This document shows positions 1 through 16,302 of a stretch of DNA of 64,000 nt, in pieces (within the stretch, counting starts at the first letter, position 1; every line of letters starts with the position of its first letter). Source of the DNA: Leptospiraceae bacterium (GTDB lineage: Bacteria; Spirochaetota; Leptospiria; Leptospirales; Leptonemataceae); the NCBI GenBank assembly GCA_040217195.1, contig JAVJNR010000002.1, forward strand, positions 288,001 to 352,000, given 5' to 3'. A program made the position numbers and the translations under genes. A model generated the notes under the pieces. The model had not been told where the DNA came from. It did not search any database and worked only from the letters and a program-made list of their open reading frames with translations.

Positions 1-227
1 TAATGCTGCTCATTGGCTGCATCCGTTCGGACAGCGATGGGAGATCGCTCCAGCTCCTCCCGGAAGGCCTGAAAATGGGCCTGTTGCGCTTCGGCGCTTC
101 CTTTCCATTCCTGCTTCAGTCGGGTGCGGTTTAGACTACGGATTCCCGTTCGAATCAAAAAATCAGGCACAATGCCACGGGCCAACATCCGATCTAGAAA
201 TCCCGCCGAGGATTGTTCAGAATTCAT
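1..227 (-). CDS. SAM-dependent methyltransferase, CFA-synthase/coclaurine N-methyltransferase-like (N-terminal part; runs off window)
   Basis: Not in ORF track. Manual translation MNSEQSSAGFLDRMLARGIVPDFLIRTGIRSL...PIAVRTDAANEQHY matches the N-terminal 'VPD-x-LIR-x-GIR...ANEQHY' pattern of this family; SD AAGGAG at 238-243 (alternative ATG at 236). Confidence 0.8.
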   Translation of the reverse strand, partial: MNSEQSSAGFLDRMLARGIVPDFLIRTGIRSLNRTRLKQEWKGSAEAQQAHFQAFREELERSPIAVRTDAANEQH

Positions 228-324
228 CTTTTCCATTCTCCTTTATCTGTATGAGGCAGACTGCCCGGGGGTTGCTCCGGATCCAGGGGCAGATCCGGAA
301 ACCAGATACAGCCAACCTGACCCA

Positions 325-353
325 AATATACCCAGGTTGTCGCGGGTTGTCAA
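325..353 (-). promoter_or_regulatory. sigma70-type promoter for the divergent methyltransferase
   Basis: Minus strand TTGACA (353-348), 17-nt spacer, TATATT (330-325). Confidence 0.7.
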
Positions 354-443
354 AATAAAAGTCCAGGGTTACTAAAAAAGATTGGACGTTTCCTGGTTTT
401 GCTCTTTCATTCGTCTCAGGTTTTAGACTCGATGTAGAAGGTT

Positions 444-1925
444 ATGAGCAACTCCAGCCCTGAAATATTACCAATTCGAACCCGTATGGGTTACGGAGCC
501 GCAGAAATGGGCATTTTTGCGGTGGAGATGATGGTGCGTCTGCATCTGATGAAGTTCTACACCGATGTGGCCGGCTTAAGCGCTGGATTGGCCGGGATGG
601 CCATTGCGGTCGCTATGTTCTGGGATGCCTTTACCGATCCTGTGATGGGAATTCTATCCGACCGAACCACTATGAGAATGGGTAAGAGGAGACCGTACCT
701 ATTGCTGGGGAGTTTTGTCATGGCCCTGGCTTTTCTGGCCACTTTTAGACCTCCCATGCTGGATACAGAATCCGGTCGTTTCATTTTTCTTCTCATAAGC
801 TATATAATTCTGAATACGGCCATGACCGTGTTGGCCGTCCCTCATTCGGCCCTGGGCGGAGAGCTTTCTTTTGATTCAAACGTCAGAACCTCAGTTTTCG
901 CCTTCCGGCTGTTCTTTGGTAATATGGGCTTACTGGCTGGTACGATTCTACCCATTGTATTTTTGGATACCATCGCGCCTGCAATGGGAACCGGAGATAC
1001 TCCCGGTGTAAGAGATCCGGAGGCAGCCACCCAGGCCTATTTCTATGGAGCGGCCGTAATCGCCGGGCTAATTCTGCTGACTGGCTGGGTCAGTTACATG
1101 GCAACCGCGGGTAGAGACCGACCGGCCGAAAAGAGGCCTCCGTTGCGCGGAAAGGCCATTCTGAATGAAATCGGCCGGCTATTCCAGGTTCTGCGAAACC
1201 CTATCTTTGTCGTTCTTCTGGGTGCGTACTTCATCGCCTATGTTGGTGTTTCCATCAATTCTACTCTGGCTCTCTATTACTATGAATACAGGCTCAGACT
1301 GGATAGCGGCTCGGTGGGCATCATTCTGGTAGTTTTTATCATTGTATGGTCTGCATCGCTGGTATTCTGGACCTGGCTTTCACGAAAGGCTGGCAAGAAG
1401 TATCCAGGATTTGCCGGAGTATTCCTTCTCGGACTTGCAACCTGCATTACGTATCCATTCTTTCCTCCTGGCGAAATCCTGTATCCGCTAATCATGTCTG
1501 TGCTCGGAGGTTTCCTCGTAGGGGCCATTGTACTTCTGGATAGTCTGGTAGCTGACATTGTAGATTACGATGAGCTGAAGACAGGTGAACACCGGGAAGG
1601 ACTGTATTTTGGATTCTGGAAAATGGCTATCAAGGCATCCCGGGGAGTGTCCATGGCATTTACCGGAACTCTCCTGGCTGCCATAGGATTCCAGGCAAAT
1701 CAGATTCAGACCGAAGAAGTGAGCAATCGTATTGCAGTACTCTTTGGCCCGGGCGTTGGCGCATTCTTTCTACTGGGAGCCATTATCTTTCTATTTCTTC
1801 CCTACAGCCGGGCCATCCACCACAGGGTTCAGAATCTTCTGGTGCGAAAGAGAGAGCTTCGAAACCGCTTGCGTTCTGGTTCAGCCCACTTCCAATCCTC
1901 TGTGCAAACAGGAGGAACGGTATGA
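444..1925 (+). CDS. MFS transporter, GPH/MelB (glycoside-pentoside-hexuronide) family
   Basis: About 12 hydrophobic segments; motifs WDAFTDPVMG-x-SDRT, GKRRPY, ADIVDYDE-x-TGEHREG. Confidence 0.9.
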   Translation: MSNSSPEILPIRTRMGYGAAEMGIFAVEMMVRLHLMKFYTDVAGLSAGLAGMAIAVAMFWDAFTDPVMGILSDRTTMRMGKRRPYLLLGSFVMALAFLATFRPPMLDTESGRFIFLLISYIILNTAMTVLAVPHSALGGELSFDSNVRTSVFAFRLFFGNMGLLAGTILPIVFLDTIAPAMGTGDTPGVRDPEAATQAYFYGAAVIAGLILLTGWVSYMATAGRDRPAEKRPPLRGKAILNEIGRLFQVLRNPIFVVLLGAYFIAYVGVSINSTLALYYYEYRLRLDSGSVGIILVVFIIVWSASLVFWTWLSRKAGKKYPGFAGVFLLGLATCITYPFFPPGEILYPLIMSVLGGFLVGAIVLLDSLVADIVDYDELKTGEHREGLYFGFWKMAIKASRGVSMAFTGTLLAAIGFQANQIQTEEVSNRIAVLFGPGVGAFFLLGAIIFLFLPYSRAIHHRVQNLLVRKRELRNRLRSGSAHFQSSVQTGGTV

Positions 1926-3775
1926 ACTTGAATGATTTTTTGCAACGTTATCCCTGGTCCAGATGGAACGTGGATCCAGAAAAAGAAAGAATCGTGGAAA
2001 ATCTCTGGATTTTCCCACTGGAAGTTAGTCGAGAAGATTTCTGGCCCTACATAGCAGATACATCCAGAACCAATAGCTTGCTGGGACTTCCAGAAATGAT
2101 TTTCGAAGAGAAGAATGGAAAGCTTTTCGGAAAGACCCGGTATGCAGGCATTCAGCATGAATGGGAAGAGGTGCCCTGGCAATGGCGTCGACCGGAAGAG
2201 CTGATTTCCGTGCGTCTGTACTCAAAGGGATTGGGCAGCATGGTTCGCGGAATTTTCTATCTGGAAGAATCCGGTGAAAACCGGACAAATGTACATATCT
2301 ATTTTGGATGGGTTGCCAGTGGTCTATTTGGCGCTCTATTTCTGAAAATCGGAACCGGAAGAATTAAATCCGGATTCGCAAACGTACTCAAGCAATACGA
2401 AAAAGAAATCCAGAGTTCAAAGACTAAAAAGCCGGCTGCGTTGACAACAATTGAGAAGCCAGTGATTGACCTGGAAGATAAGGCCAGAGCCATCGTGGAT
2501 CAGACGCGAAAGACCTGGGATAAGCAGGCAATTCCAGCGGAAGTGTCCGAGGCCCTGGTTCGAATTGTTACTCGATGGGACGATGTAGACCTGTATCGAA
2601 TTCGTCCATTGTCTCTGGCCGATCAGCTAGGTCTGGACAGCAGGGAGGTGATTCGAGCCTTCCTTTACGGGTGTCAGACAGGGCTATTTAATCTTACCTG
2701 GGACGTTATCTGTCCTCATTGTCGCGGAGTTAGAGAGGAAAAGGGCAGCCTGATGAAATTGGACGCCAGAGGCAGCTGCGACGTATGCGATATAGATTTC
2801 GATGCAACCGGCGAAGACAGTCTGGAAATTACCTTTCATGTCAGCCCATCGGTTCGGGACGTTAAGAAACAGTTCTTCTGTAGTGCAGAACCGGCTCGAA
2901 AGCCGCACATCATTCTGCAAGACCACCTACTTTCTGGAGAAGAGCGGAACGTAAACCTGCAACTGGATTCTGGCAGATACAGAGCAAGGCTCCAGGGAAG
3001 TCAGTCATTTTTCTGGCTCCAGTCCGATGACCTGAGCGGAATTCAAAGATATCGGTGGGAGGCAGGTGCAACGTCGACCGGAGAACCGGTAAGTGTTATC
3101 ACAAGGCCGGTCCTGGAATTAAAGAACTCGGATTCTAAAGCATTAACCTTCGTTGTCGATCGCAGCGATGCAGACAATGAAGTCCTGCGACCGGGGGATT
3201 TGTTTGCTCTGCCAGACTATCGATTACTGTATCCGGATGAAAGGCTCCCGGGAGATCTGAAAATAGACATCGGTGTACAGACCATCCTGTTCACTGATAT
3301 TGTCGGCTCTTCAAAAATGTATAATGAGCTGGGAGATACCGGGGCCTTTAAACGAGTAAGGGACCATTTTGCCTCCATCGGTGAAGTCATAGAATCTGGC
3401 AAGGGAGCGATAATAAAAACAGTAGGCGATGCTGTCTTTGCTGTCTTTGGAAACCAGGTCGATGCGTATCGCGCAGCTCTGGAATTGCGAAAGAGATTCG
3501 CAAGCACCGATGCCGCAGTTCAGATTCGCATATCATTGCATACAGGCCCCTGTCTGGCTGTGAACCTGGATACAGGCATCGATTACTTTGGAAACACTGT
3601 GAACCTGAGTGCCAAGCTTCAGGCATTTGCAGGCGCCGGGCAAATCGCATTCACCGGATCTGCTCTGGAAAGTTCCCTTGTAAGGGAGGAGCTTCGCAGG
3701 GAGGGATTGAGACCACAGGAGGTGGATTTGCCGGAGTCCATGAGCTGGATTCCGGACAAGGTGTACCGGGTATGA
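1922..3775 (+). CDS. Class III adenylate/guanylate cyclase with N-terminal SRPBCC-like region and DUF5939-like Cys4 domain
   Basis: C-terminal LFTDIVGSS, IKTVGDAVFA, ISLHTGP, DYFGNTVN motifs; CPHC...CDVC in the middle; ATGA overlap with the MFS gene. Confidence 0.85.
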   Translation: MNLNDFLQRYPWSRWNVDPEKERIVENLWIFPLEVSREDFWPYIADTSRTNSLLGLPEMIFEEKNGKLFGKTRYAGIQHEWEEVPWQWRRPEELISVRLYSKGLGSMVRGIFYLEESGENRTNVHIYFGWVASGLFGALFLKIGTGRIKSGFANVLKQYEKEIQSSKTKKPAALTTIEKPVIDLEDKARAIVDQTRKTWDKQAIPAEVSEALVRIVTRWDDVDLYRIRPLSLADQLGLDSREVIRAFLYGCQTGLFNLTWDVICPHCRGVREEKGSLMKLDARGSCDVCDIDFDATGEDSLEITFHVSPSVRDVKKQFFCSAEPARKPHIILQDHLLSGEERNVNLQLDSGRYRARLQGSQSFFWLQSDDLSGIQRYRWEAGATSTGEPVSVITRPVLELKNSDSKALTFVVDRSDADNEVLRPGDLFALPDYRLLYPDERLPGDLKIDIGVQTILFTDIVGSSKMYNELGDTGAFKRVRDHFASIGEVIESGKGAIIKTVGDAVFAVFGNQVDAYRAALELRKRFASTDAAVQIRISLHTGPCLAVNLDTGIDYFGNTVNLSAKLQAFAGAGQIAFTGSALESSLVREELRREGLRPQEVDLPESMSWIPDKVYRV

Positions 3776-3783
3776 GGTAGAAT

Positions 3784-4680
3784 ATGAAGTATCTGATTAA
3801 GGATCTCAGTAAATTAACAGGCTTTGACGGTGCCAGGATTCGAAAATGGCAGGAAAGGTATGGCATTCTGCGTCCAGAACGAGGGGCTAATGGCTATTGG
3901 TACTACGGAAATGAAGATTACATAGTGTTGCAGAATATGAAGCGGCTTCTGCAGAAGGGCGAAAAGCTGCAATCTGTGATTTCACTGGGTCGTGATCATC
4001 TGATTGGTATGATGGGTGCGGATGATTTCTCCGAGCATGAAATGTCACTCATTCAAAGAATCTCCTCCAATGAATTCTCCAGTATCGAAGAGGACTTTAA
4101 TGAACTCTATTCGCAGATGCCTTTTGGTCAGTTTGTTCGTGGTCCTATCCGGGACGCTGCAGTACTAACGGGGAGTGCCTGGGAAGCGGGCCTATTGTCC
4201 GTAGCCGAAGAGCATTCATTCTCTCGCTGGCTATTTACTTACATCTATGGAAAGACAGGTGCACTGGGCATTCCATCTGATCCTGTATGGCTGGTTTGTG
4301 TCTTTCCTGGAGATCCCCATGAACTGGGTGCGTTGATGCATTATGCGCTTCTGGTTTCGAAAAGGGTTCCGGCGAAGTACGCAGGGACTCTGTCCATAGA
4401 TCATATTATCGATGAAATTAAGAGGAACGGATACAGAAATCTAAGTCTGTCGATGATCATGCCTCAATCACCAGAAAAGATAGAAAGCATTCGCAGTCGC
4501 ATAAAGGAAAGGACCGGACTGCGAAAGGTTCTGATTGGAGGAAGAGGCTACAGGTCATCTTATTCGTCTGGAGAGGACGGTGATGGTCTTCAGTACTGTG
4601 AGCCGCCAGTGATTAATAAGCGCCGGAAAATCCTCCTGGAAAACATAAATAGATCAATAGAGAGCTCGAAGCAGGACTAG
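3784..4680 (+). CDS. MerR-family regulator with cobalamin-binding domains (CarH/LitR-like)
   Basis: N-terminal MerR HTH (IRKWQERYG-x-LRP-x-R); W133-x9-E143-H144; D177-x-H179-x2-G182; C-terminal LIGGRG. Confidence 0.85.
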   Translation: MKYLIKDLSKLTGFDGARIRKWQERYGILRPERGANGYWYYGNEDYIVLQNMKRLLQKGEKLQSVISLGRDHLIGMMGADDFSEHEMSLIQRISSNEFSSIEEDFNELYSQMPFGQFVRGPIRDAAVLTGSAWEAGLLSVAEEHSFSRWLFTYIYGKTGALGIPSDPVWLVCVFPGDPHELGALMHYALLVSKRVPAKYAGTLSIDHIIDEIKRNGYRNLSLSMIMPQSPEKIESIRSRIKERTGLRKVLIGGRGYRSSYSSGEDGDGLQYCEPPVINKRRKILLENINRSIESSKQD

Positions 4681-4726
4681 AGGAAATTGCGAAATACTTA
4701 ATCAATAGCAATTAGAGGTAAATTGG

Positions 4727-6007
4727 ATGAGGGTAGGAATTGTTGGAAGCGGTATCTCCGGTCTCGGGGCCGCGTATCATTTAAAGACAAGATACGGTCA
4801 TGACGTTGAAATCTTTGAAAAGAACAGTTATGCAGGCGGCCATACCAATACCATACCACTGGAAGAGGATGGTCATCCGGTGGCAGTGGATACAGGTTTC
4901 ATAGTCTTTAATGAACGGACCTATCCAGAACTGATCAAACTATTCGCAGAATTGGATGTGGAGTCCCAGCCAGGGGATATGTCCTTTAGCGTCTGGAATT
5001 TGCGGAATAATCTGCAATGGAGTGGAAACGGTTTCTCAGGTCTCTTTGCTCAGAAGCGAAATCTAATGAATCCCCATTATCTGCGAATGCTTTCATCCGC
5101 GAAGCGCTTTTTTAGTGAAGGTGCGGAAGATACAAACCTGGACCCTGATCTGTCGATTGGGCAGTATCTCGGGGACAGAGGGTATTCTAAATATTTCTGC
5201 GATAATTTTGTAATCCCCATGGCCTCCGCCGTTTGGTCCACTCCTATGAAAGAGATGCTGGGTTTTCCCGCCGGATCTTTGCTGCGCTTCTTCAAGAATC
5301 ATGGAATGCTAGATATTGAGAAGACTGTGATCTGGCGAACGCTTTTGGGCGGTTCCTGGACCTACGTTAAAGCGATTCAGCAAAGAGCGGATCTGAAAAT
5401 TCATCTGAATCAGCCCACCCGAGAAGTGAGAAAAAACGAGGGTGGGGCGATGATTGTTACTGATTCCGGAGAACACCAGTTCGACGCAGTGCTCATGGCC
5501 TGCCATTCGAATCAGGCAATCGGCCTGTTTCCGGGTATGCCGGAAGAGCATCGAAACATTCTGAAGCATTTCAAGTACCAGAAAAACCAGGCCATTTTGC
5601 ATAGCGACGAGCGTGCGATGCCACCAAGAAAGAAGGCCTGGGCTGCCTGGAACTTCAAAGTCACTGAAGATGAGCGGACTTGCACAGTTTACTGGATGAA
5701 TAAGTTGCAGAATCTGCACAAGCAGGGGGCGCAAAGAGAATACTTCGTATCCATCAATGAATTCCAGAACATCGACGAATCCAAAATCCATCGGGTTATC
5801 AACTATGAGCATCCACTGTTTGATGTTCAGGCAGTGAAAAACCAGAAAGAACTTCTTCGAATCAATCAGGAAGGACCGGTCCATTACTGCGGTGCCTATT
5901 TTCGATACGGCTTTCATAAAGATGGACTGTGGTCCGGGCTCCAGGCGGCCAGATCTCTGAATGAGCGGTTGGTAGGTTCGGAGGCTCTTGCAGGACGCGG
6001 AAAGTAG
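4727..6007 (+). CDS. FAD-dependent oxidoreductase, COG2907 / UfaD-like fatty acyl desaturase
   Basis: GSGISGL dinucleotide-binding motif, GGHTNT, VDTGFIVFN-x-RTYP, WAAWN, Y-x-HP, GAYF-x-YGFH-x-DG. Confidence 0.85.
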   Translation: MRVGIVGSGISGLGAAYHLKTRYGHDVEIFEKNSYAGGHTNTIPLEEDGHPVAVDTGFIVFNERTYPELIKLFAELDVESQPGDMSFSVWNLRNNLQWSGNGFSGLFAQKRNLMNPHYLRMLSSAKRFFSEGAEDTNLDPDLSIGQYLGDRGYSKYFCDNFVIPMASAVWSTPMKEMLGFPAGSLLRFFKNHGMLDIEKTVIWRTLLGGSWTYVKAIQQRADLKIHLNQPTREVRKNEGGAMIVTDSGEHQFDAVLMACHSNQAIGLFPGMPEEHRNILKHFKYQKNQAILHSDERAMPPRKKAWAAWNFKVTEDERTCTVYWMNKLQNLHKQGAQREYFVSINEFQNIDESKIHRVINYEHPLFDVQAVKNQKELLRINQEGPVHYCGAYFRYGFHKDGLWSGLQAARSLNERLVGSEALAGRGK

Positions 6008-6027
6008 TCCCGAGTCGAGTATTGTCA

Positions 6028-6966
6028 ATGCAGGATCAGATTCTAAACAGCGTAATGTACAATGCCACTGTGTATCACAGAAGAATGCAGGTGGCCATAC
6101 ATGAGTTTCGCACCAGTATGTATACCTGGTATCTGGATCTGGATGAGCTCGATTCATTGAGCGAGAAGCATCCAATTCTTATTGGAGTGAATCGTTCGGG
6201 AATTTACTCTTACAGGGATTCGGATCACTTCCGATTCTGGAACGCAGAAAGAAAGGAAAATGCGAGCATCAATCCTGCAATTCCGGGAAAGATGCGAAGG
6301 AAGGAAAACTCAAACGCGAATTCAAAGAAGTCGGGAATTTCTGCTGCAGCTACTGGCGCCAGTCAGGTGCGCTCCTGGGTGAATCAGTATTTCCGCGAAA
6401 AGGACCAGCCAGAGCCCCATCGTGTTTTGTTGCTTACGAATCTGAGATATCTAGGTTATGGTTTCAATCCGGTGAGCTTCTATTTTGCTCTGGATCGGAA
6501 AGACCGACTCTATGCAATTCTAGCGGAAGTAAACAACACATTTGGAGAACAGAAGCCGTACTTGATACTGCTGGATAAGCCGGTGGAGGATTCTGAAGAT
6601 AAGCGAATCCATGCCCGGGCCTGGAAGAATTTCTATGTTTCTCCCTTCATCGACCGGGACCGAGAATTCGTTTTTCGCATGAAGAGACCAGGAGAGAAGC
6701 TCAGTCTCGGAATAGATACATACGAATCGGAGCAGCCAGTCTTGAGAGCGGCTTACTCCGGGCGACGAATGGCCATTACCCGAACAAGTATGCTTATGAA
6801 TATGCTTCGCTTTCCGTTTGTAACGATCAAGGTAATAGCACTGATTCACTGGCATGCTTTACGTTTATATCTGAAGAAAGTTCCATTTTTTAGCAAGGAA
6901 TCAACGGACAAACTAATCAGGAAAGATGAAAACAAAAGAAATGAGGTTACCCATGCTGCGGTCTAA
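6028..6966 (+). CDS. DUF1365 family protein (UfaO-like)
   Basis: H-x-R, LDLDEL, GY-x-FNPVSFY, AEVNNTFGE, K-x-FYVSPF, IHWHAL-x-L-x2-KKVPF motifs. Confidence 0.88.
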   Translation: MQDQILNSVMYNATVYHRRMQVAIHEFRTSMYTWYLDLDELDSLSEKHPILIGVNRSGIYSYRDSDHFRFWNAERKENASINPAIPGKMRRKENSNANSKKSGISAAATGASQVRSWVNQYFREKDQPEPHRVLLLTNLRYLGYGFNPVSFYFALDRKDRLYAILAEVNNTFGEQKPYLILLDKPVEDSEDKRIHARAWKNFYVSPFIDRDREFVFRMKRPGEKLSLGIDTYESEQPVLRAAYSGRRMAITRTSMLMNMLRFPFVTIKVIALIHWHALRLYLKKVPFFSKESTDKLIRKDENKRNEVTHAAV

Positions 6967-8245
6967 ACAAACTCCCCAACATTTCCTCAAAGGAAATCGA
7001 CTTCCCCAAAAAGAGATCCAGGATTATCCCCGAGGATTTTATCAATCAGTGTTCCACCGTGTCATGTCCCGGGCTACCAGCGGGCAACTGAATCTAGAAA
7101 TAGGAGATGGAACTCATATATATGGTGAATCCGGCTCAGCGGAGGCGGTAAGTCTACGAGTACTGGATGACAGATTTTTCAAGCACGCCGTGCTGCACGG
7201 AGATATTGGATTCGGTGAAGGTTTTGTAGAAGGTCTATGGGACACAGATGATCTTCATGGAGTGCTGAGCTGGTTTCTGCAGAACGGAGATTCCAATCCT
7301 ACTTTCGCTCAGGGGGCAGCCAAAAGCCTGGTCGTGGGCGGGCTGAATTTTCTGGACAAAGTCGGTCATGCCTTTCGTCGGAATACCCGGCAAGGCAGTC
7401 TTAGAAATATTAGCTATCACTATGATATCTCCAACGATCTGTACAGGCTGATGCTGGATCCAACAATGGCCTATTCTTCTGGCAAATACTCCGAAGGAGT
7501 CAATGATCTGCAGAAGGCTCAGGAAAAGAAATACGAGACTATCTGTCGTAAGCTTGCCCTGAAACCGGATCTGGAGCTGCTTGAAGTGGGCTCCGGCTGG
7601 GGCGGCTTTGCCATATATGCAGCAAAGCACTATGGATGCAAAGTTACTACTGTTACAATTTCGCAGCAGCAGTTTGACTATACCCGGGAATTGATAGAGA
7701 GTGAGGGTATGGAGGATCGTGTTAAGGTTTTGCTTCAGGATTACAGGGATATTGAAGGAACCTATGACCGAATCGTTAGTATTGAAATGGTGGAAGCTCT
7801 GGGTCTTGAATACCACGATACATTCTTCAAGAAAATGAATCAGCTACTTAAAACTCAGGGAATCATGCTAATACAGTGTATAACGTTCCCGGAGAGCTCT
7901 TATGATCGATACGTTCAAAGCATAGATTGGATTGCGAAACACATTTTTCCAGGTTCTCTGTTGCTTTCCCAGTTTGAAGTAATGAAGTCGCTTAAAAGAG
8001 TAACGGATCTCAACATCTATAGCATTGAAAGCCTGGGTCTGAGCTATGCCAGGACTCTGAATGCGTGGTATGAAAGATTCAATGCCAATTTGGAACGGGT
8101 CAGAGAACTGGGTTTTGATGATACGTTCATTCGACTCTGGAATTACTACCTGGCATACTGCGAAGTAGGTTTTGCCAGTCGATACATCAATGATGTTCAC
8201 ATAGTGTTTTCCAGGTCTCAGAATACAGAATTGCCAGACGGTTAA
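6953..8245 (+). CDS. Cyclopropane-fatty-acyl-phospholipid synthase family methyltransferase (UfaM/CfaS-like)
   Basis: HYDISND, MAYSS, LEVGSGWGG (SAM binding), SIEMVEA, HIFPG, WNYYLAYCE-x-GF; start placed after SD GAGGT (alternative 6926). Confidence 0.9.
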   Translation: MLRSKQTPQHFLKGNRLPQKEIQDYPRGFYQSVFHRVMSRATSGQLNLEIGDGTHIYGESGSAEAVSLRVLDDRFFKHAVLHGDIGFGEGFVEGLWDTDDLHGVLSWFLQNGDSNPTFAQGAAKSLVVGGLNFLDKVGHAFRRNTRQGSLRNISYHYDISNDLYRLMLDPTMAYSSGKYSEGVNDLQKAQEKKYETICRKLALKPDLELLEVGSGWGGFAIYAAKHYGCKVTTVTISQQQFDYTRELIESEGMEDRVKVLLQDYRDIEGTYDRIVSIEMVEALGLEYHDTFFKKMNQLLKTQGIMLIQCITFPESSYDRYVQSIDWIAKHIFPGSLLLSQFEVMKSLKRVTDLNIYSIESLGLSYARTLNAWYERFNANLERVRELGFDDTFIRLWNYYLAYCEVGFASRYINDVHIVFSRSQNTELPDG

Positions 8246-8271
8246 AGAGTCTTAGAACAACGGAGGTATCT

Positions 8272-8520
8272 ATGTCGGAAGAAACAGAAGACATGCTTAT
8301 GAAGAGCATGGAATCCCAGCTGATCACTCTCTATGGAGAGCGGGAATTGCTGCTGGAGGAATTGGGTGTATGCAACGCTCAAGAATTGATCGCACTGATT
8401 AAGAGCATGGAAGCGCAACTGGCAGACCTCTACGCTGATAGGGAGAATGCCATTATAATAGATGGAAATCGGATAACGATTTCGGGCCCAAAGAAGATCT
8501 TTGTCCGAAAGAGTAAATAA
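8272..8520 (+). CDS. PYP-associated hypothetical protein with two KSME-x-QL-x2-LY repeats
   Basis: Strong SD GGAGGT; 82-aa ORF; internal repeat; fills the gap between cfa-like gene and pyp. Confidence 0.8.
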   Translation: MSEETEDMLMKSMESQLITLYGERELLLEELGVCNAQELIALIKSMEAQLADLYADRENAIIIDGNRITISGPKKIFVRKSK

Positions 8521-8546
8521 TTCCGCGAAAGGAAAAGGAGAATACA

Positions 8547-8972
8547 ATGAGTGAAGCAATAATGAAGAAAATCCAGGAGCAAGCCGCCTACTGGGCCCAG
8601 AGCAGTGCCAGGTTTGTGGAAGACACCGTAGTTGAGGAGATTGCTGGCTATGATCGTTCGAAAATCGATGAGCTGCCCCATGGAGTCATTAAGCTGGATG
8701 ATGAAGGGAAGGTCCTATTGTTCAGCCGATATGAATCCCAGAAGTCCGGTGTCCCCGTTGCAGAAGCGGAAGGTAAGCTGTTTTTCAGCCAGGTGGCTCC
8801 CTGCACAAACAATGCAATCTTTCTGGGAGCATTCCAAAAGGGTGTGTCGGAAGGGCATATGGATTTGATTTTTCCTTACACATTTACCTATAAGATGAAA
8901 CCCGCTCCGGTAAAGGTTCATCTGTATCGCAAGGAGGGAACCAGGGATAACTGGGTCTTCATCAAGTGGTAG
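8547..8972 (+). CDS. pyp: Photoactive yellow protein
   Basis: Ungapped match to the PYP core as I recall it: GVIKLD-x2-G, E63 (=E46), GK-x-FF-x2-VAPCT (C86 = chromophore Cys69), F-x-YTF-x-Y-x-M-x-P-x2-VKVH, WVF-x-K; SD AAGGAG. Confidence 0.93.
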   Translation: MSEAIMKKIQEQAAYWAQSSARFVEDTVVEEIAGYDRSKIDELPHGVIKLDDEGKVLLFSRYESQKSGVPVAEAEGKLFFSQVAPCTNNAIFLGAFQKGVSEGHMDLIFPYTFTYKMKPAPVKVHLYRKEGTRDNWVFIKW

Positions 8973-10471
8973 ATGTCTGGAAGAATCTACTTTACCGGCG
9001 GCTGAAAGGAAAGTCGGAGCCTTTATTTCTATTCCCGGAGCAAGCCGTGTCAGCTGCGGCTCTGTGGATGGGAGTAAGGCTCTGGTTGCAGCGCTGGCAA
9101 AGAGAAGATCCGGTTGTGTTTGCAGCCATCGGAGCAGGTCCCGAATACCTGGAGGTATTGGTGGCTACGCTGGTGCGAGGAGGTACTTTTGTTGCCGGTC
9201 ATCCGGAACAGGGATTCGAACATCTCAGGACTGAAATCCTGCAGTGGCAACCAGACTTTGTGGTTCTGGATAGGCATTCATCCTTTACAATTCCCGGATA
9301 TAGGATATGCGATGAAGTCAACGAACATCGTAATGCCTTACTGTTAGGCCGGATCCATGGTTACGAAGATTTGCAGGAAAAGCACCCTCTGCGGCAATTC
9401 CACTCATCTGAGCGAAGAATCATTCTTTCCACGTCTGGAACCACAGGTGGTCAGCGAAAATGGGCTATCCTTTCAGACTACAATCTATTTAGCGTATTGC
9501 GCACTCATCTACCCAGACTACAAATGAAAGGCGCTACGGTTCTGAGCGTACTTCCCTGGAATCATGCCTTTGGATTAATACTGGATCTAATTCCTGCACT
9601 CCTCCGGGCTCGCACTATTGTCAGAGACATTCCAGGGGACGCTTCCCGATTTCTCGCTGTTCAGAAACGATTTGGGATTGATTATGTAAGTGCAGTCCCC
9701 GCAGTATTCGATCGTTGGCTAAAGGATGACTCCGTTAAAGATGTAATCGGAAGCTTTACAGGTGGTCTGCTCGGAGGAGCTTCCGTAAATTCTCAACTGG
9801 CCAATGCACTTCGCGGTAGTAGCTTTCGAGTTGGATACGGGCAAACCGAGGCATCACCCGGAATCACTCTTGGAAATGCCGGAGATTTCAAACAGGGATT
9901 TATTGGCAACGTACTGGGATGTGAAGTAGATATCTCACAGGGAACATTGCATTATCGTGGTCCCAACGTTTGCACTGCCATGGTTAATTTCACCGAATCG
10001 CCAGGTATTCAATTCTCTGAATCGACCAGAGTAGCGCTAGAAGATGCAATGCATTCGTTAACTATAGGGATTCAAAAAAGAGATTCGGGTAACTGGCAGG
10101 ACACCGGCGATATAGTCCAGGAAGTGGAGGGCGGTTTCAGATATCTGGGCCGTGCCAATGATAATTTCAAACTCTCCAATGGACGTTTTCTGGATGCCAT
10201 TGCCTGGGAGAAAGCCCTGGAAGAATCCACCGGGTATCATTGCTATATCGTTTCATTTGATGGTGGTTTCAAAGTCTACTTCGCAGCCCCGGACCATGAA
10301 TCCGGTAAACAATCATTCCCTACGATAAAATTACAAGCCAGACAGTCTCTGGGAAAACTAGGCGAATACATTCGAGGGATGGAGTTCCTGCAGGCCCGGG
10401 ATATACCTCGCAGCTCCAAGGGCGATGTGAATCGGTCCGCACTATCCAATCCAAAGGCCGGAGGATCATAA
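8966..10471 (+). CDS. pcl: AMP-dependent ligase, probable p-coumaroyl-CoA ligase for PYP chromophore attachment
   Basis: STSGTTG P-loop, LPW-x-HAFG, GYGQTEAS, DTGD, GR-x2-D-x-FK; overlaps pyp stop. Confidence 0.8.
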   Translation: MVDVWKNLLYRRLKGKSEPLFLFPEQAVSAAALWMGVRLWLQRWQREDPVVFAAIGAGPEYLEVLVATLVRGGTFVAGHPEQGFEHLRTEILQWQPDFVVLDRHSSFTIPGYRICDEVNEHRNALLLGRIHGYEDLQEKHPLRQFHSSERRIILSTSGTTGGQRKWAILSDYNLFSVLRTHLPRLQMKGATVLSVLPWNHAFGLILDLIPALLRARTIVRDIPGDASRFLAVQKRFGIDYVSAVPAVFDRWLKDDSVKDVIGSFTGGLLGGASVNSQLANALRGSSFRVGYGQTEASPGITLGNAGDFKQGFIGNVLGCEVDISQGTLHYRGPNVCTAMVNFTESPGIQFSESTRVALEDAMHSLTIGIQKRDSGNWQDTGDIVQEVEGGFRYLGRANDNFKLSNGRFLDAIAWEKALEESTGYHCYIVSFDGGFKVYFAAPDHESGKQSFPTIKLQARQSLGKLGEYIRGMEFLQARDIPRSSKGDVNRSALSNPKAGGS

Positions 10472-10472
10472 T

Positions 10473-10994
10473 ATGACTAACAATTCAACGGAAATGGAAG
10501 GGCTAATTTCCAACAGTAAAGTAGAGCATCTTCTGGAATACTTACTCTCCGACGCTCCGCTTTCTGAGGAACAAAAGCAACACTTAACAGAAGAGGCGAA
10601 TACCTGGAAGCAGGACTTGCTAGATCAGTCTTCCATATTTGCGCAAACCAGGCAGCTGCAATCCTACATTGCCCTGCGCTTCACCGAACTGAAGGCTCGC
10701 TGGATTATCTTGAATGCTCGAATACAGGACTGCAACCGCCAGCTGGTTCAGCCAGATCCTGAATTACTCTACCAATCCTCCATTCTCAGTGGATTCCTGG
10801 GTATGCTGGAAGAAGGATTGGAGGCAGGTAGACTGCATCTAATCAATGATGCCCTGGCAAACCAGGCATCAAGTCTGGAAGGCGGGCCGTACGTGGTTAT
10901 CGAGGGAGATCAAGTGATTATTGAAGGAAAGCGAAAGGTGATGATCTATAGAAAGAGCAGTTTAGACGATGATTCTAACAAGCAGTCCTCCTGA
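10473..10994 (+). CDS. PYP-cluster hypothetical helical protein with C-terminal beta motif
   Basis: SD GGAGGA; 1 nt after pcl stop; overlaps tal start. Confidence 0.75.
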   Translation: MTNNSTEMEGLISNSKVEHLLEYLLSDAPLSEEQKQHLTEEANTWKQDLLDQSSIFAQTRQLQSYIALRFTELKARWIILNARIQDCNRQLVQPDPELLYQSSILSGFLGMLEEGLEAGRLHLINDALANQASSLEGGPYVVIEGDQVIIEGKRKVMIYRKSSLDDDSNKQSS

Positions 10995-12528
10995 ACCAGA
11001 GCAACTGGAGGCACTGACCGATTCTGTTCAGATCTCTACTGAAGTCCAGCAGGTCGCTATCGTCAGCAGGCAGCATTTTGACCGTGCCGTTGCGGCCGGA
11101 CAGTCTATATACGGAACGACCACCGGCTACGGTCCATTTGTAGGCTTTCAGGCCCGGGAAGATGGAGGAACTGATTTAATTGAGCATTTGCTTGTTGGAA
11201 GCGGCGAAGCATTGCCTCCAGATCTAATCTCCCCGGCCCTTTATTTGAGGGCCTGGACCATGGCCCAGGGAAGGTCTGGAGTGCGAATCCCGGTAATTCA
11301 GGCTTATCTGGATGCACTTGGTATTTGTCAGACAGGAATGTATCCGGAAATTCCATCCATCGGATCTCTGGGTGCCAGCGGTGATCTTATACCTCTGGCT
11401 CATCTATTGAATGCAATTCTTGGCAGGGGCTCATGGAAAGGGCACTCCGGTAAGACCAGAGTTGCAAATCTAGTAAAAGGTCATTCCATGGATAGACGCG
11501 AAGCCCTGGCCTGTATCAATGGAATCAGTTTTAGTAAGGCCGGCGCTTCTCTGACTTACTGCAAGCTGAATCGCCTACTTCGGATACATGAAATACTGAC
11601 AGCCATTCTATACTATCTTCTGGATGCCAACCCGGATCATCTCAGCCCTACTCTTTTTCAGTCTGCGAATCCTTCCAATACAGCCGGTCGAATGCTCAAT
11701 TATCTAAACTCAATAAATAAGCGAGCGAGCCAGGGAAACTCCGGTCATTCAGGCGCGAAAGATCTGCAACACAGCGCAGAAGGCGAAAGCCCGCGTCATG
11801 GCTACGCACTTCAGGCCCCTTACAGTCTTAGATGCGCTCCACAGACCATAAGTGCCTGCCTGGGGCTATTGAATTCTGCCAGAAGCTCTATTTTTCAGGA
11901 TCTTGAAACCATCGATGACAATCCATTGATCGATCCGGAAACAGGTTTTGTAGCTCATGGAGGAAATTTCTTTGGGCAGTCCACTGCATTCGGCAGCGAT
12001 GAGCTTACAATGGCCGCCTGTCAGTCTGGAGTGCTGGCCGAGCGCCAGCTGGCCTTGATTCTGGATCCAGACTTAAATGGCGAAGAGGCATTGATGCTGG
12101 CGAGAAAACCAGGCCATAGCAGCGGGCTTGCAGGACTGCAACTGACTACTACAGCTCTGGTGGCTGAAATGAGAAGTTTGAGCCAAATGCATAGCACCTA
12201 CAGTATTCCTACGAACGGCAAAAACCAGGATATTGTACCTATGGCCTTTCTGGCTTCCAGACGTGCCCACCAGGTTACGATTCATCTTTCGGCTGTTCTA
12301 GGAGCTCTTTTAATGGCTACCAGAAATCTCTGGCAAATGCGAAATGAAAATGAGGTAGTCTTTGATTATCCCTTCTGGCCGGAACATCGTCTTCGAATGC
12401 TCAGCGAAGCAATTGTCCTGGCTGGAGAAATGGAATACCCGGATGAGTCCCTGGGAAAAACCCTTCAATTTTATCAAAGAGCATTAATAAACCGGGAGAT
12501 CTTGAGCGATGAAAATCTATACCCTTGA
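10969..12528 (+). CDS. tal: Aromatic amino acid ammonia-lyase, tyrosine ammonia-lyase type
   Basis: YG-x-TTG-x-G, MIO-forming ASG in GSLGASGDL-x-PLAH, YSLRC-x-PQ, DNP, HGGNF, NQD; HL selectivity pair (IEHLL-x-G-x-G). Confidence 0.88.
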   Translation: MILTSSPPEPEQLEALTDSVQISTEVQQVAIVSRQHFDRAVAAGQSIYGTTTGYGPFVGFQAREDGGTDLIEHLLVGSGEALPPDLISPALYLRAWTMAQGRSGVRIPVIQAYLDALGICQTGMYPEIPSIGSLGASGDLIPLAHLLNAILGRGSWKGHSGKTRVANLVKGHSMDRREALACINGISFSKAGASLTYCKLNRLLRIHEILTAILYYLLDANPDHLSPTLFQSANPSNTAGRMLNYLNSINKRASQGNSGHSGAKDLQHSAEGESPRHGYALQAPYSLRCAPQTISACLGLLNSARSSIFQDLETIDDNPLIDPETGFVAHGGNFFGQSTAFGSDELTMAACQSGVLAERQLALILDPDLNGEEALMLARKPGHSSGLAGLQLTTTALVAEMRSLSQMHSTYSIPTNGKNQDIVPMAFLASRRAHQVTIHLSAVLGALLMATRNLWQMRNENEVVFDYPFWPEHRLRMLSEAIVLAGEMEYPDESLGKTLQFYQRALINREILSDENLYP

Positions 12529-12982
12529 GACTCAGGTTACTCTGAACGCTTCGGTGAAGGAGGCCTGGGAATTCTTTTCTGATCCTGGAAATCTAAGCAC
12601 TATTACACCGGCATCCATGGGCTTTGAGATTACTCAGCAGGATGGAAAATCTATGTATCCGGGGATGATGATTGGTTATCGCCTTCGGCCTTTTGGCGGG
12701 ATTCCTATTGGATGGGTCACTGAGATTACCCATGTCCGGGAGCCCTATTTCTTTGTGGATGAACAACGTTTTGGTCCGTATCGGCTTTGGCATCATAAGC
12801 ATTTCTTCGAAGAAACCGAAAGTGGATTGCATTGCCGGGACCTAGTTCACTATGCATTACCGGGTGGTTTGGCCGGACGGGCGCTGCATCCTTTCCTGAT
12901 TCGTCCACGTCTGGAGCAGATTTTTTCCTTCAGGCGAATGGTACTGTTAAAGATATTTCGTGGTCCGGAAGTAGAGGATTAG
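12509..12982 (+). CDS. SRPBCC/START-like ligand-binding protein
   Basis: W-x-FFS-x-P-x-NL-x2-ITP, FVDEQ-x2-GPY-x2-W-x-H-x-H-x-F, IF-x-FR. Confidence 0.85.
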   Translation: MKIYTLETQVTLNASVKEAWEFFSDPGNLSTITPASMGFEITQQDGKSMYPGMMIGYRLRPFGGIPIGWVTEITHVREPYFFVDEQRFGPYRLWHHKHFFEETESGLHCRDLVHYALPGGLAGRALHPFLIRPRLEQIFSFRRMVLLKIFRGPEVED

Positions 12983-13184: not shown

Positions 13185-13694
13185 ATGAGAAAGCAAAGGC
13201 AAAACCCCGTCAGGAAGCTGACTCTGTTGATTCTGATTGTAGCGGGATTTTTTCTGGCTAATGTTTCGCTTCAGGCAGAAGGCCAATGGAGCACGGGTCA
13301 GACCTTCGATGCCATTCGCTATGAGGACCAACATGGAAAATTGAGAATCCTGGATGCTTCCGTTCAATATGTAATCTTTCTGGCCGATATGGATGCCAAG
13401 GACAGTCTGCATCAGTTCTTACAGGATGCAGGACAACCCTGGCTGGACAATCACAAGGCTGTGGTCGTTGCAGACATACATGAGATGCCCTATCTGGTAA
13501 GCGTCATGTTTGCTCTTCCAGCCATGCGTGATTACTCCTACGCATTGCATCTAATCCGGGAAGCCGGACCTGGGGAAAGATTTCCTGCGAAAGCCGGTCA
13601 GTTGACATTAATTCGCCTGGAAAACAGAAAAGTCATGAGTATTGAGATCTTTGAGACAGGGAAAGCCTTGATTGAGGCGATTGAATCCAGGTAA
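13185..13694 (+). CDS. Exported hypothetical protein, possibly thioredoxin-like fold
   Basis: Signal peptide (ends SLQA); DQHG, ADI-x2-MP, FALP-x-MRDY-x-Y. Confidence 0.6.
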   Translation: MRKQRQNPVRKLTLLILIVAGFFLANVSLQAEGQWSTGQTFDAIRYEDQHGKLRILDASVQYVIFLADMDAKDSLHQFLQDAGQPWLDNHKAVVVADIHEMPYLVSVMFALPAMRDYSYALHLIREAGPGERFPAKAGQLTLIRLENRKVMSIEIFETGKALIEAIESR

Positions 13695-13730: not shown

Positions 13731-14561
13731 CTATTTTTTCTTCTGAGTTGTAGGATCGCCTGCATCCAGAATCAAAGGACCTTTTGTCCTTCCATGAATA
13801 AACTGTTGGACCACCGGGTTGTCGGAGTTTCTAATTTCATCTGGAGTACCTACCATTTCAACCTGACCCTGATAAAGGAATGTAATCCGGTCGGCAATAT
13901 AGTAGGCTGATGCCATATCATGGGTCACAACTATCTGCGTTACGGCAAGCTCGCGCTGGAGCTTTCGCACAAGTTCATTAAATACCTGACTCAAGACAGG
14001 ATCCAGCCCGGATGTAGGCTCATCGTACAATAGTATTTCAGGATTGGTGGTCAGTGCACGCGCAATTCCTGCCCTTTTTTTCATTCCTCCAGAGATATTG
14101 GATGGCAGCAGATTCATGGCAGGCATCAAGCCCATGTACTTTAGCTTCTCTTTTACAATTCCATCGATATCTTCTTCCTTTACCAGGCGATGCTCTCGAA
14201 GAGGTAAAGCCACATTGTCATATACACTTAACCAGTTAATGAGTGCACCACTTTGAAACAGAACTCCCATTCGACCTCTGAGTTTTTCCATTCGCTTCTT
14301 GGAAGCGTGAACCATGGATTCGCCTTCAACCAGAACATCTCCCTTATCCGGACTTAAAAGGCCAATGATATGACGAATACTTACTGACTTTCCGGTGCCC
14401 GAACCTCCCAGAAGAACCATCACTTCTCCTCTGCGGACCTGTATGTCCACGCCCTTCAGAATTTCTCTTTCGCCAAAGGACTTGTGTATTCCTTTCATTT
14501 CTATGACCACTTCGCCAAAAGGGCCAGGCTGTGTTTGGGATTTATTTTCGTAAGGGTCCAT
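13731..14561 (-). CDS. mlaF: ABC transporter ATP-binding protein, MlaF/Ttg2A family
   Basis: GGSGTGKS, FQSGAL, ISGGMKKR, LYDEPTSGLDP, VTHD. Confidence 0.9.
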   Translation of the reverse strand: MDPYENKSQTQPGPFGEVVIEMKGIHKSFGEREILKGVDIQVRRGEVMVLLGGSGTGKSVSIRHIIGLLSPDKGDVLVEGESMVHASKKRMEKLRGRMGVLFQSGALINWLSVYDNVALPLREHRLVKEEDIDGIVKEKLKYMGLMPAMNLLPSNISGGMKKRAGIARALTTNPEILLYDEPTSGLDPVLSQVFNELVRKLQRELAVTQIVVTHDMASAYYIADRITFLYQGQVEMVGTPDEIRNSDNPVVQQFIHGRTKGPLILDAGDPTTQKKK

Positions 14562-14600
14562 AGTGTTACTCGGGTTAGAAAGAAACGATACTACAAAAAG

Positions 14601-15443
14601 TCAAAGTGGGGCCCCCGCGGCCAGCCGGAGCATGGTAATTAAATACGCTTCAAGAAATGAAATGGGAGCCTGGCTTTCGCGTAGGTCTTCTGCAAGCAGG
14701 CGACCCTCTCGGAGAACTACCAGAAGGTCTCGAAGGGAAGCATTGGTTCGGTCCAGAAGCACAGGATCATGAAGTAGCAGACTTGCTGTGCCAGTACCGG
14801 GAGTATTGATTTTGTCTGTGGTCTGTGCGATGTTTCGGATGATTCTGCGAATATCGCCCCGGTTTTCGTTCACTACATCGGCGACGATGGTAAGAGGATC
14901 GTCATAGTTCGATGCCTGAACCAGAGATTGTACAGGCCGATTACCACCAGGCAGACTGCCGGTTTTGCGAAAGAATAGCATTTCTTTTGAATTCCAGAGC
15001 ACCGGATCAATGATTGCGCCGCTATTTTCGCTTCCCGGGCGTATATCAATAATCTTATCTGAAATTACAGCCGGATATCTTGTATAGATACGATAATCCG
15101 AGTAGAGTAATGGTAGAGTCCGCATGTTCAACACAGCAATAACTACCTGGCTTGCGCTGGGAGTAGCGGTAGCCGGGTCATTGGAAAGTATGATATGTCC
15201 TTTCGCATCCAGGGGAGTGTACTGTAGATAATTAACATAACCCTGGTCCACTCCAAGTACCTGGACTCGGGACCCAATCTTAATCCCTTCAGCCGACCTC
15301 AGCACCACCGGAAAATAATATTGTAGATCGCGGTTTCGCTCTGCAGGAAGCAGAACGGTAAGACTCATCACTACTATGATAGCCGCCCAGAAAACAGTGC
15401 CGATGATGATTACGGCAGATTTATGTAACCATTTAGATATCAT
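14601..15443 (-). CDS. MCE/MlaD family protein
   Basis: N-terminal TM helix, A-x-GI-x2-GS-x-V-x-V-x-GV-x2-G-x-V MCE motif, C-terminal helical region; between mlaE and mlaF. Confidence 0.8.
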   Translation of the reverse strand: MISKWLHKSAVIIIGTVFWAAIIVVMSLTVLLPAERNRDLQYYFPVVLRSAEGIKIGSRVQVLGVDQGYVNYLQYTPLDAKGHIILSNDPATATPSASQVVIAVLNMRTLPLLYSDYRIYTRYPAVISDKIIDIRPGSENSGAIIDPVLWNSKEMLFFRKTGSLPGGNRPVQSLVQASNYDDPLTIVADVVNENRGDIRRIIRNIAQTTDKINTPGTGTASLLLHDPVLLDRTNASLRDLLVVLREGRLLAEDLRESQAPISFLEAYLITMLRLAAGAPL

Positions 15444-15525
15444 TGTCTGGTCTGCTCATTCCTCCAGAAGAGTGCAGCGATGGAAAGCACAGCCTCATTG
15501 CCTGAAAATCTGTGGCCTTTGATTC

Positions 15526-16302
15526 TCACCTGTAGAACAACGCTGTTGTGAAATATCCGAAAATAATTACAAATAGATAGGACAGTACCACCGATTGTCG
15601 CACAGCAACACCCACTCCAATGGCACCTCCAGTAGCAGTTAACCCCTGCTGACAGGAAATGGCCGAAATGGTAAGTCCAAATAGCAATGCCTTCAAGTTG
15701 CCTACCCATATGTCTTTGAGTCCTGTGTTACCCAGAAGAACTTCCATCACCAGATTGAAATAGGTAGAACTATCCACACCCAGCTGGGTTTTGGCTACCA
15801 GGGATCCGCCCAGAACTCCTAGAAGGCTTGCGTAGTTCGAAAGCACCGGCGTCATGATTGTAAAGCCAATCACTCGCGGCAGAACAAGGTAACGCACCGG
15901 ATTGATGGACATCACTTCCAGTGCATCAATTTCCTCTGAGACAGTCATGGTGCCAATCTCTGCAGCCATGGCAGAACCCACCGCAGCAGAAAGGATCAGT
16001 GCTGTCATGAAGGGAGCCATTTCCCTGGTCAGTGCAACCACGATCACATTTCCGATTTGCTCTTCCTGGCCAAAGTCCTTCAGAGCCAGACCTGTTTGAA
16101 GCGAAAGGATCATACCAGTGAATGTAGCCACAACACTTACTACAAAGAGGGATTTCAATCCTGCAACGTACATCTGCCTCAGTGTTTCGCGTTTCTTAAA
16201 CCATAGATGCGGTAGCTGAAGCATTGTGCGAAACAGCAATAGAAGGGTGCTGCCTGCACCGATAATGGGATCGTAAATGTAGGTGCGTAATAGCCAGATC
16301 AT
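15526..16302 (-). CDS. mlaE: MlaE family ABC permease
   Basis: REMAP, GSAMAAEIGTM-x2-SEEIDALEVM-x-INP-x2-YLV-x-PR, GGA-x-GVG. Confidence 0.92.
   Translation of the reverse strand: MIWLLRTYIYDPIIGAGSTLLLLFRTMLQLPHLWFKKRETLRQMYVAGLKSLFVVSVVATFTGMILSLQTGLALKDFGQEEQIGNVIVVALTREMAPFMTALILSAAVGSAMAAEIGTMTVSEEIDALEVMSINPVRYLVLPRVIGFTIMTPVLSNYASLLGVLGGSLVAKTQLGVDSSTYFNLVMEVLLGNTGLKDIWVGNLKALLFGLTISAISCQQGLTATGGAIGVGVAVRQSVVLSYLFVIIFGYFTTALFYR

Follow-up and report, generated by a model that had tools for sequence, protein, structure and literature searches.

The window analysed here, a stretch of 64,000 nucleotides from a Leptospiraceae bacterium (assembly GCA_040217195.1, contig JAVJNR010000002.1, positions 288,001 to 352,000 of the forward strand), carries near its start a run of 12 genes in which a CarH-type regulator of the adenosylcobalamin (AdoB12) kind, lipid-modifying enzymes resembling those of the Ufa pathway and a cassette for photoactive yellow protein (PYP) are found together. 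Two small proteins of this cassette belong to unnamed families, which we designate REP and HD. We favour, with a probability of about 0.55, a reading in two layers, in which the membrane block is switched by the CarH-type regulator and REP and HD are dedicated partners of clade-B PYPs, with HD as the relay. By its gene content, the operon unites, at the level of the genus, a PYP cassette and a light-stress block of a known kind that is preceded by a new candidate operator; HD is predicted to dock on PYP and may be its long-sought signal relay.

REP, which has two QLxxLY repeats, is a helical hairpin, and HD is a helical bundle with a near-invariant Trp and Asn. They have a C-terminal beta-tail in common (profile comparison: probability 94%, E 8e-8), and the two are often fused. 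Neither family had a match in Pfam, NCBIfam, PDB or Atlas. A search of 1.84 billion representatives gave 658 relatives. Names at source are 'hypothetical', bar one stray label. Fold searches returned only generic helical matches, which is no evidence of a new fold; the best match of HD, the HscB helical domain (Z 8.5, root-mean-square deviation 2.9, 87 aligned residues), falls within the generic helical-bundle range. Some other assignments were tried and rejected: 1) the beta-tail resembles CsrA by eye, and the profile comparison was empty (probability 0.5%); 2) HD is not taken as an Hpt domain (CheA P1), there being no Hpt match on the HD part of the scanned HD proteins and no conserved His in a 99-row alignment; and 3) REP is not the 'chemoreceptor without sensory domain' of PMC9664959, which, in the accessible part of that source, is a separate gene of about 410 amino acids (aa), REP being the 'None' entry between it and pyp.

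The association of both families with PYP was examined in a clade-B set, for which the 80 best were taken out of 584 pyp loci in GTDB genomes, and in a control set made up of 74 clade-A loci from metagenomes plus 6 other clade-A/C loci. With profiles made solely from Leptospirales rows, REP was detected in 76/80 and HD in 58/80 loci of the clade-B set, which makes them commoner than the ligase (46/80) or the lyase (41/80). With wider profiles the counts rose to 77/80 and 61/80, against 0/80 and 0/80 in the clade-A/C loci. When loci of at least 5 kb were considered, REP was present in 66 of 68 and HD in 53 of 68, against none of 52 control loci for either. In 72 of 75 loci, REP is no more than 300 bp away from pyp. 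The clade-B-type loci are labelled Spirochaetota, Planctomycetota, Armatimonadota, Gemmatimonadota, Bdellovibrionota, Ignavibacteriota/Bacteroidota, Rhodothermota, Myxococcota and Pseudomonadota, about nine phyla assigned from record titles, and labels of metagenome-assembled genomes can be wrong. Residue 97 is Thr in 79/85 PYP domains of the clade-B set and Asp in 68/76 of the metagenome control, the remainder falling outside the motif; the Thr97 count is partly built in, this Thr being part of one of the two search patterns. No such bias affects the whole-genome searches. In these, REP and PYP mark the identical 14 of 42 family genomes and the identical 35 of 401 phylum genomes, and 11 further PYP matches without REP in the phylum comprise eight weak PAS matches and three proteins of the H. 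halophila-like kind. HD was found in 11 of the 14 PYP-bearing family genomes, the three in which it was missed having a completeness of 54-78%, and it was not found in any of the 28 others. These counts are patterns rather than tests, because kin are not independent. The suggestion of the initial annotation that PYP has its own partners is now much better supported than could be seen from the sequence of the window.

Gene fusions connect HD to chemotaxis proteins. In five representatives HD is N-terminal on a protein ending in CheW, and two of these carry a Pfam HATPase domain; HD stands at the C-terminus of a full CheA in P0134, and likewise in an Oligoflexus protein (L162) encoded beside a REP-PYP fusion. 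In thirteen proteins encoded in pyp loci and about 480 aa long, HD is followed by a decayed CheA body, with a CheW match in 8/13, and their profile matches both CheA genes of the window genome (E 3e-5 and 1e-4). Because the ATP-binding part is too decayed for Pfam, they are presumably scaffolds rather than kinases. Like CheA (P1-P2-P3-P4-P5), HD-bearing proteins have dimerisation, HATPase-like and CheW parts, but HD stands in place of the His-phosphotransfer domain. REP is fused to PYP-like domains and to HD. In saprophytic Leptospira, the loci with pyp and those without both adjoin a chemoreceptor gene. Among the latter, L166:9207-10154 and L167:9502-10451 hold REP and HD-REP genes beside the chemoreceptor, pyp having been lost locally, and in L071 it is still between them; the remaining pyp of the L166 and L167 genomes is elsewhere, with a tail-less REP. 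REP-repeat arrays of 870-1290 aa ending in a Cys-less pseudo-PYP also occur (L137:4270-7299, P0008, P0028, P0042), and the one in L137 (Salinivenus) lies directly upstream of a true pyp.

A complex was predicted for a natural HD-REP fusion of genome G020 and the G020 PYP (54% identical to the window PYP), each with its alignment and with no chromophore. The pair scored 0.69 (runs 0.69, 0.74 and 0.67), against 0.01 for the best control; the score mark was reached by 116/157 solved complexes and 2/215 mismatched pairs, counts that are a rough guide for our own alignments. The runs agree in at least 78% of contacts, with a partner pLDDT (per-residue confidence) of at least 86, and no similar complex was found in PDB. 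HD is predicted to bind PYP on the chromophore-lid loop: its Trp/Asn/Ser groove sits on PYP residues 108-120 and 79-91, which are H. halophila 92-104 and the Cys69 loop. The closest predicted contacts join PYP Thr97 and Tyr98 to the HD W (98% conserved) and N (99%). The window HD keeps the interface residues W77, N81, I84, Q85, S103 and S106.

According to the two-layer reading, then, REP and HD would be dedicated partners of clade-B (Thr97) PYPs. The Trp/Asn/Ser groove of HD would clamp the loop at H. halophila 94-102, which closes the chromophore pocket, together with the Cys69 loop, and since the clamped loops frame the chromophore, HD binding should depend on the light state. Most likely HD would be an adaptor passing the PYP signal to chemosensory machinery, because HD is elsewhere wired to CheA-like scaffolds. 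REP would be a repeat scaffold that keeps the parts of the module joined, either as a fusion or by way of the beta-tail that it shares with HD. In its most specific form, which we hold as tentative, the proposal is that HD is the receiver of clade-B PYPs via Thr97/Tyr98, binds in a light-dependent manner and plugs into chemosensory arrays, in many phyla by replacing the P1 domain of a CheA-like scaffold, and that REP clusters PYP-HD units. The two would then form a photoreceptor-to-CheA relay that has not been described before and occurs in about nine phyla; in the window's genus, a B12-dependent green-light switch would govern the production of this blue-light module.

An alternative that we consider unlikely, although it survives best among those weighed, is that HD (and REP) bind PYP for maturation or photocycle control instead of relay, either as a chaperone loading p-coumaroyl-CoA onto Cys69 or as a factor that resets or stabilises a state. 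In its favour, the lid of the pocket and the Cys loop both lie within the predicted interface; HD is often encoded between the p-coumarate:CoA ligase (pCL) and tyrosine ammonia-lyase (TAL) genes, as in the window, where it stands alone. However, HD is repeatedly fused to CheA-like and CheW-bearing proteins, and HD-REP genes persist next to a chemoreceptor where pyp has been lost locally. The L. biflexa PYP is characterised as photoactive (PMC12826048, Table 1).

Several observations weigh against the two-layer reading and its partner assignments. PYP phylogeny is a confounder for both Thr97 and the partners, in addition to the presence of Thr97 in a search pattern. HD was found in 29/35 PYP- and REP-bearing phylum genomes, the other six having no HD match, and genome G339 has HD with no PYP or REP match. 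The second loci of saprophytic Leptospira hold REP and HD-REP with no pyp between them (4/4 by position, 2 of them read out). The predicted complex is that of the G020 pair and not of the window pair. It contains no chromophore and is uninformative on light dependence, and REP makes no confident contact in it. At three conserved interface positions the window HD departs from the family, with Asp for Tyr (86%), Arg for Phe (52%) and Val for Gly (84%). Finally, HD of the window genome is not fused to CheA, and its locus contains no chemotaxis gene.

For the other layer, the regulator was compared with the marks by which CarH is assigned, namely an RxWxxRY helix, Wx9EH and D/ExHxxG...SxT/V...GG (PMC9304148, accessible part). 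Its DNA-binding helix reads RKWQERY at 20-26 (PF13411, E 3e-11), W133-x9-E143-H144 aligns with T. thermophilus CarH, and the lower-ligand motif is D177-P-H179-E-L-G182 (the D177-x-H179-xx-G pattern) with G252-G253, the SxT/V strand being degenerate. These motifs support the CarH-type AdoB12 regulator named in the initial annotation. Glu replaces His after the Trp, and the Pfam B12-binding matches are weak (E 0.015 and 0.056, under the cut-off). For AdoB12 supply, the window genome (4.6 Mb, 94% complete) encodes a PduO-type adenosyltransferase and CobS and has a cobalamin riboswitch; neither CobA/BtuR nor a photolyase was found in it.

A candidate CarH operator, GTC-N21-GAC, precedes the run, and its right half overlaps a -35-like hexamer for the 12 genes. 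Upstream of carH the box recurs in 11/21 relatives (1000 shuffles: mean 1.0, maximum 5), the N21 spacer having been chosen after scanning 40 spacers (runner-up 3/21), a choice that counts against the box. With a matrix from the sites of 10 relatives, none of the window's genus, the window box was the top match genome-wide at 26.1 bits (next 20.5). Lower-ranked matches were rejected as unconvincing; a weak one, at C1:665730-665760, extends over the probable start codon of G000:C1:665635-666492, a displaced homolog of the 256-aa gene of the relatives' carH block. No triple of the canonical tandem 11-bp CarH repeats (TnnACA, three or four) was found genome-wide. At the locus there is one perfect copy, with pseudo-repeats 12 and 10 bp off, and Sorangiineae CarH sites with a single repeat and pseudo-repeats have been reported (PMC9304148, accessible part). 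That the conserved box differs from the canonical repeat is a further point against it. The sigma-70-like promoter of the divergent methylase gene is the best site found, the total number of such sites being at chance level, and it is kept in 4/4 same-genus loci aligned.

The candidate box precedes the MFS gene, which argues for the whole run as one CarH-controlled unit, and we infer such a unit. In the dark, an AdoB12-dependent CarH-type repressor would bind the inverted box over its own promoter; light would split the Co-C bond and release the repressor; and UfaD/UfaO/UfaM-like enzymes would then modify membrane fatty acids, probably into furan fatty acids. In the window's genus the MFS and cyclase genes lie between box and carH, and a ready-made REP-pyp-pCL-HD-TAL cassette would have been inserted between the CFA and SRPBCC genes. 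Since the cassette lies inside the block, PYP and its chromophore would be made under the same switch. We infer repression, co-transcription, the lipid product, light dependence and the link to motility as parts of the scheme. A B12 light switch turning on furan-lipid genes and PYP synthesis, as originally proposed, is plausible in view of the CarH motifs, the AdoB12 genes, the box before the first gene and the place of the cassette between CFA and SRPBCC.

How old this arrangement is can be judged across the Leptospirales family of the window, where a carH homolog is present in 30/42 genomes and pyp in 14/42. The 21 carH loci of other genera that were read out, some of them cut by contig ends, contain the oxidoreductase in 13 cases, DUF1365 in 12, the CFA-like methylase in 11, the second methylase in 9, MFS and photolyase in 6 each, SRPBCC in 5 (4 after CFA and 1 after the FAD oxidoreductase), the cyclase in 3 and pyp in 1 (G027). 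From these loci, the ancestral order is carH, oxidoreductase, DUF1365, CFA, 256-aa gene, SRPBCC, and the cassette REP-pyp-ligase-HD-lyase occupies the place of the 256-aa gene in the window's genus. The array of 13 genes (the 12 and the divergent methylase) is complete in 3/6 same-genus genomes and can be followed to the contig edge in the remaining three; being repeated, it is not due to chance. Conserved carH-pyp synteny therefore holds within the genus, and beyond it G027 alone has the two genes as neighbours, which makes the full combination, as far as gene order goes, a genus-level arrangement and not a conserved circuit. The product of the ufa-like trio is probably a furan fatty acid; the ufa assignments were made from family and gene order, which is to be counted against this layer.

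In G027 the two genes belong to a light island (L029:900-14326) of lyase, photolyase, carH, the ufa-like trio, SRPBCC, two REP-pyp pairs, ligase, HD and MFS. An unrelated bacterium has an oxidoreductase-DUF1365-CFA trio within 7 kb of HD-REP-pyp (L165:48-2862). Independent capture of the cassette by the window's genus and by G027 was considered and found no support, a joint grouping of all 9 PYPs of the two genera not being rejected (p-AU 0.31, approximately unbiased test); a narrower 7-row grouping test gave p 0.002 and omits the close copies of G030, 37 of the 89 rows being used. A cassette in the same order stands alone in Leptospira ainlahdjerensis, and its PYP is sister to those of the genus (support 99/90).

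It is also conceivable, though distinctly improbable, that the pyp cassette, driven from a promoter of its own, is a mere passenger and that REP and HD are linked hitch-hikers that do not touch PYP. Most genomes do carry the cassette free of carH. In a marine RNA run (X1), near-identical contigs lie at 1861-2800, 3590-3765, 4321-4815, 5467-5664 and 8110-8266, thus touching the front half only; two span gene junctions and none covers pyp, and such contigs can show neither transcripts nor absence, so that a hole proves nothing. On the other hand, the gaps on either side of REP are 26 nt, ancestral genes flank the cassette on both sides, the CFA-REP junction has no strong terminator or promoter match beyond a 9/12 site inside CFA, and the REP/HD linkage extends over about nine phyla in many gene orders, with fusions in addition.

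The weakest candidate is the circuit of the initial annotation, in which the operon is derepressed through CarH and the co-encoded cyclase makes cAMP on a signal from PYP. In every same-genus locus that extends far enough, the cyclase does lie downstream of the box, and it carries the catalytic residues expected of class III adenylyl cyclases (Lys499/Asp554, which we take to be an adenylyl-type signature). It occurs, however, in only 3/80 pyp loci, all of the window's genus, is absent from the G027 island, stands near carH in three genomes with no pyp in the locus (L190, L192 and L200) and has unlinked paralogs in the window genome, on C1 and C3, the window itself lying on C2. By gene neighbourhood nothing ties the cyclase to PYP, and we regard a cyclic-nucleotide output of PYP as very improbable.

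Several known systems can be compared with this locus, in each case from the accessible parts of the sources. CarH/class I LitR proteins of Thermus thermophilus, Bacillus megaterium and Myxococcales (PMC9304148) have the same RxWxxRY, Wx9EH and D/ExHxxG motifs and a site over the -35 of divergent promoters. The window differs in that the candidate targets are lipid-modifying and PYP genes instead of crt, the Trp is not followed by His, and the candidate box is inverted GTC-N21-GAC instead of three or four tandem 11-bp repeats. The class II LitR regulon of Pseudomonas puts phrB, a FAD oxidoreductase and ufaM under light control (PMC9758184), and DUF1365 is the UfaO family of the Rhodobacter sphaeroides Ufa pathway (PMC7380195). 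A light-linked FAD oxidoreductase, DUF1365 and methylase are common to these systems and ours, as are a photolyase, found here in relatives, and a second photoreceptor nearby. In contrast to Pseudomonas, the regulator here has a full B12 site, the second photoreceptor is PYP and not a short LOV protein, and no photolyase was found in the genome.

Clade-B PYPs of Leptospira biflexa and Salinibacter ruber have the same Cys69, Glu46 and Thr97 as the window PYP (PMC9664959, PMC12826048), in which the corresponding residues are Cys86, Glu63 and Thr114, with Tyr115 (position 98), Met117 (position 100) and Phe59, a natural Y42F. Phe occupies position 42 in 18/89 aligned PYPs, and Y42F has been put at about 9% of PYPs (PMC9664959, PMC12826048). 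Signalling of Leptospira PYP to an adjacent chemoreceptor has been proposed from gene neighbourhood (PMC9664959), and the gene between the two is 'None' in Data Set S3 of that paper and a 134-aa hypothetical protein in PMC12826048. As far as their accessible text goes, neither defines REP or HD as families or partners or describes HD-CheA fusions. In Data Set S3 of PMC9664959, the neighbours of pyp also include genes for MerR or MerR-B12 proteins (Massilia, Acidithiobacillus) and for DUF1365 proteins (Janthinobacterium, Methylomicrobium); the main text, as available, mentions neither MerR nor B12 and does not discuss the pairs with MerR(-B12) or the trio around DUF1365. The signal chain of PYP is described as an open gap in a 2025 survey (PMC12826048, accessible part).

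The sole native PYP partner that we found in print is PBP (RCAP_rcc01067) of Rhodobacter capsulatus, a light-dependent PYP binder encoded beside pyp (10.1101/2021.06.01.446672, accessible part). As a small acidic protein encoded by a neighbour of pyp, it is a working precedent for REP and HD, but it partners a clade-A PYP, and REP and HD occur in 0/80 clade-A/C loci (R. capsulatus not being known among them). No description of REP, HD or a CarH-ufa-pyp operon was found in the literature, where Meyer et al. 2012 (on pyp gene contexts), supplements and subscription papers may mention the open reading frames (ORFs). REP and HD are thus small soluble candidate partners for a whole PYP clade, including the characterised PYPs of L. 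biflexa and S. ruber, and they make the question of the downstream partner testable through a residue-level predicted interface and Thr97 versus Asp97 specificity. A natural light-dependent PYP binder, if true, would also provide optogenetics with a pair of small size. The operon itself contributes a candidate for a new type of CarH operator and a plausible example of a photoreceptor that controls whether a second one is made.

The coordinates of the run and its upstream elements are collected in the table. Order and spacing of the 12 co-oriented genes agree with the earlier description, and its gene-family labels hold against Pfam, NCBIfam and PDB.

Table. Features at the start of the window
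Feature	Position	Strand	Remarks
Second methylase, S-adenosylmethionine-dependent, lipid-type, 5' part	1..236, start at 236, runs out of window to -825	-	353 aa
Sigma-70-like promoter for divergent methylase	325..353	-	11/12 matches, 17-bp spacer
Candidate CarH operator	359..390	+	inverted half-sites GTC-N21-GAC with A-tract
GPH-type MFS transporter	444..1925	+	MFS_2/GPH, E 5e-83; accompanies carH/ufa block
DUF5939 + class III nucleotide cyclase	1922..3775	+	loose link to carH, none to pyp
CarH/class I LitR-type MerR regulator	3784..4680	+	MerR helix-turn-helix; PDB CarH E 5e-17
FAD oxidoreductase, FAD amine-oxidase-like	4727..6007	+	UfaD-like by family and position
DUF1365 protein	6022..6966	+	E 4e-66; UfaO family
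CFA/UfaM-like fatty-acyl methylase	6926..8245	+	CMAS, E 5e-82
REP, 82 aa	8272..8520	+	unnamed acidic helical hairpin, two QLxxLY repeats, C-terminal beta-tail
Clade-B-type PYP	8547..8972	+	TIGR02373 96 bits (cut-off 143); PDB E 2e-23
AMP-binding ligase, presumed pCL	8966..10471	+	AMP-binding family
HD, 173 aa	10473..10994	+	unnamed helical bundle, conserved W77, N81, S106, REP-type beta-tail; predicted PYP-docking adaptor
MIO ammonia-lyase, presumed TAL	10969..12528	+	ASG 136-138, Tyr48, His73-Leu74
SRPBCC-like protein	12509..12982	+	weak match; final gene of ancestral carH/ufa block

The 12 ORFs (444-12982) are separated by gaps of -4, 8, 46, 14, -41, 26, 26, -7, 1, -26 and -20 nt, so five junctions overlap and the widest gap is 46 nt; starts were set at the first start codon, and some overlaps are possibly shorter. 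The genes for the FAD oxidoreductase, DUF1365 and the CFA-like methylase are adjacent (4727-8245). NCBIfam CFA models matched this methylase below their cut-off; the divergent methylase is 25% identical to it, and a FufM-like role for the latter is only a guess. The His-Leu pair of the lyase (His73-Leu74) is presumably a TAL signature.

Some minor observations remain. An extra N-terminal helix of PYP (window 8547-8615) marks the PYP subgroup that accompanies tail-bearing REP and HD in Leptospirales, many of whose members are natural Y42F variants. Natural ligase-ammonia-lyase fusions of 935-981 aa occur in Fimbriimonas-type pyp loci (L111:12578-15502, L120, L130, L143), and each is possibly a one-protein chromophore supply. 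A third beta-tail protein is encoded elsewhere in the window genome (G000:C10:796783-797586, L286:5784-6587); its N-terminus is a decayed HD-like one that has lost the Trp and Asn (probability 94%, E 2e-7). It has homologs in three same-genus genomes, lies beside a nadD-like gene in the two read out, and is a possible tail-mediated partner of the module. Following the run in the window's genus is a secreted-looking 169-aa ORF of no family (window 13185-13694), and beyond it lies a convergent MlaF/MlaD/MlaE lipid-transport operon (window 13731-16302).

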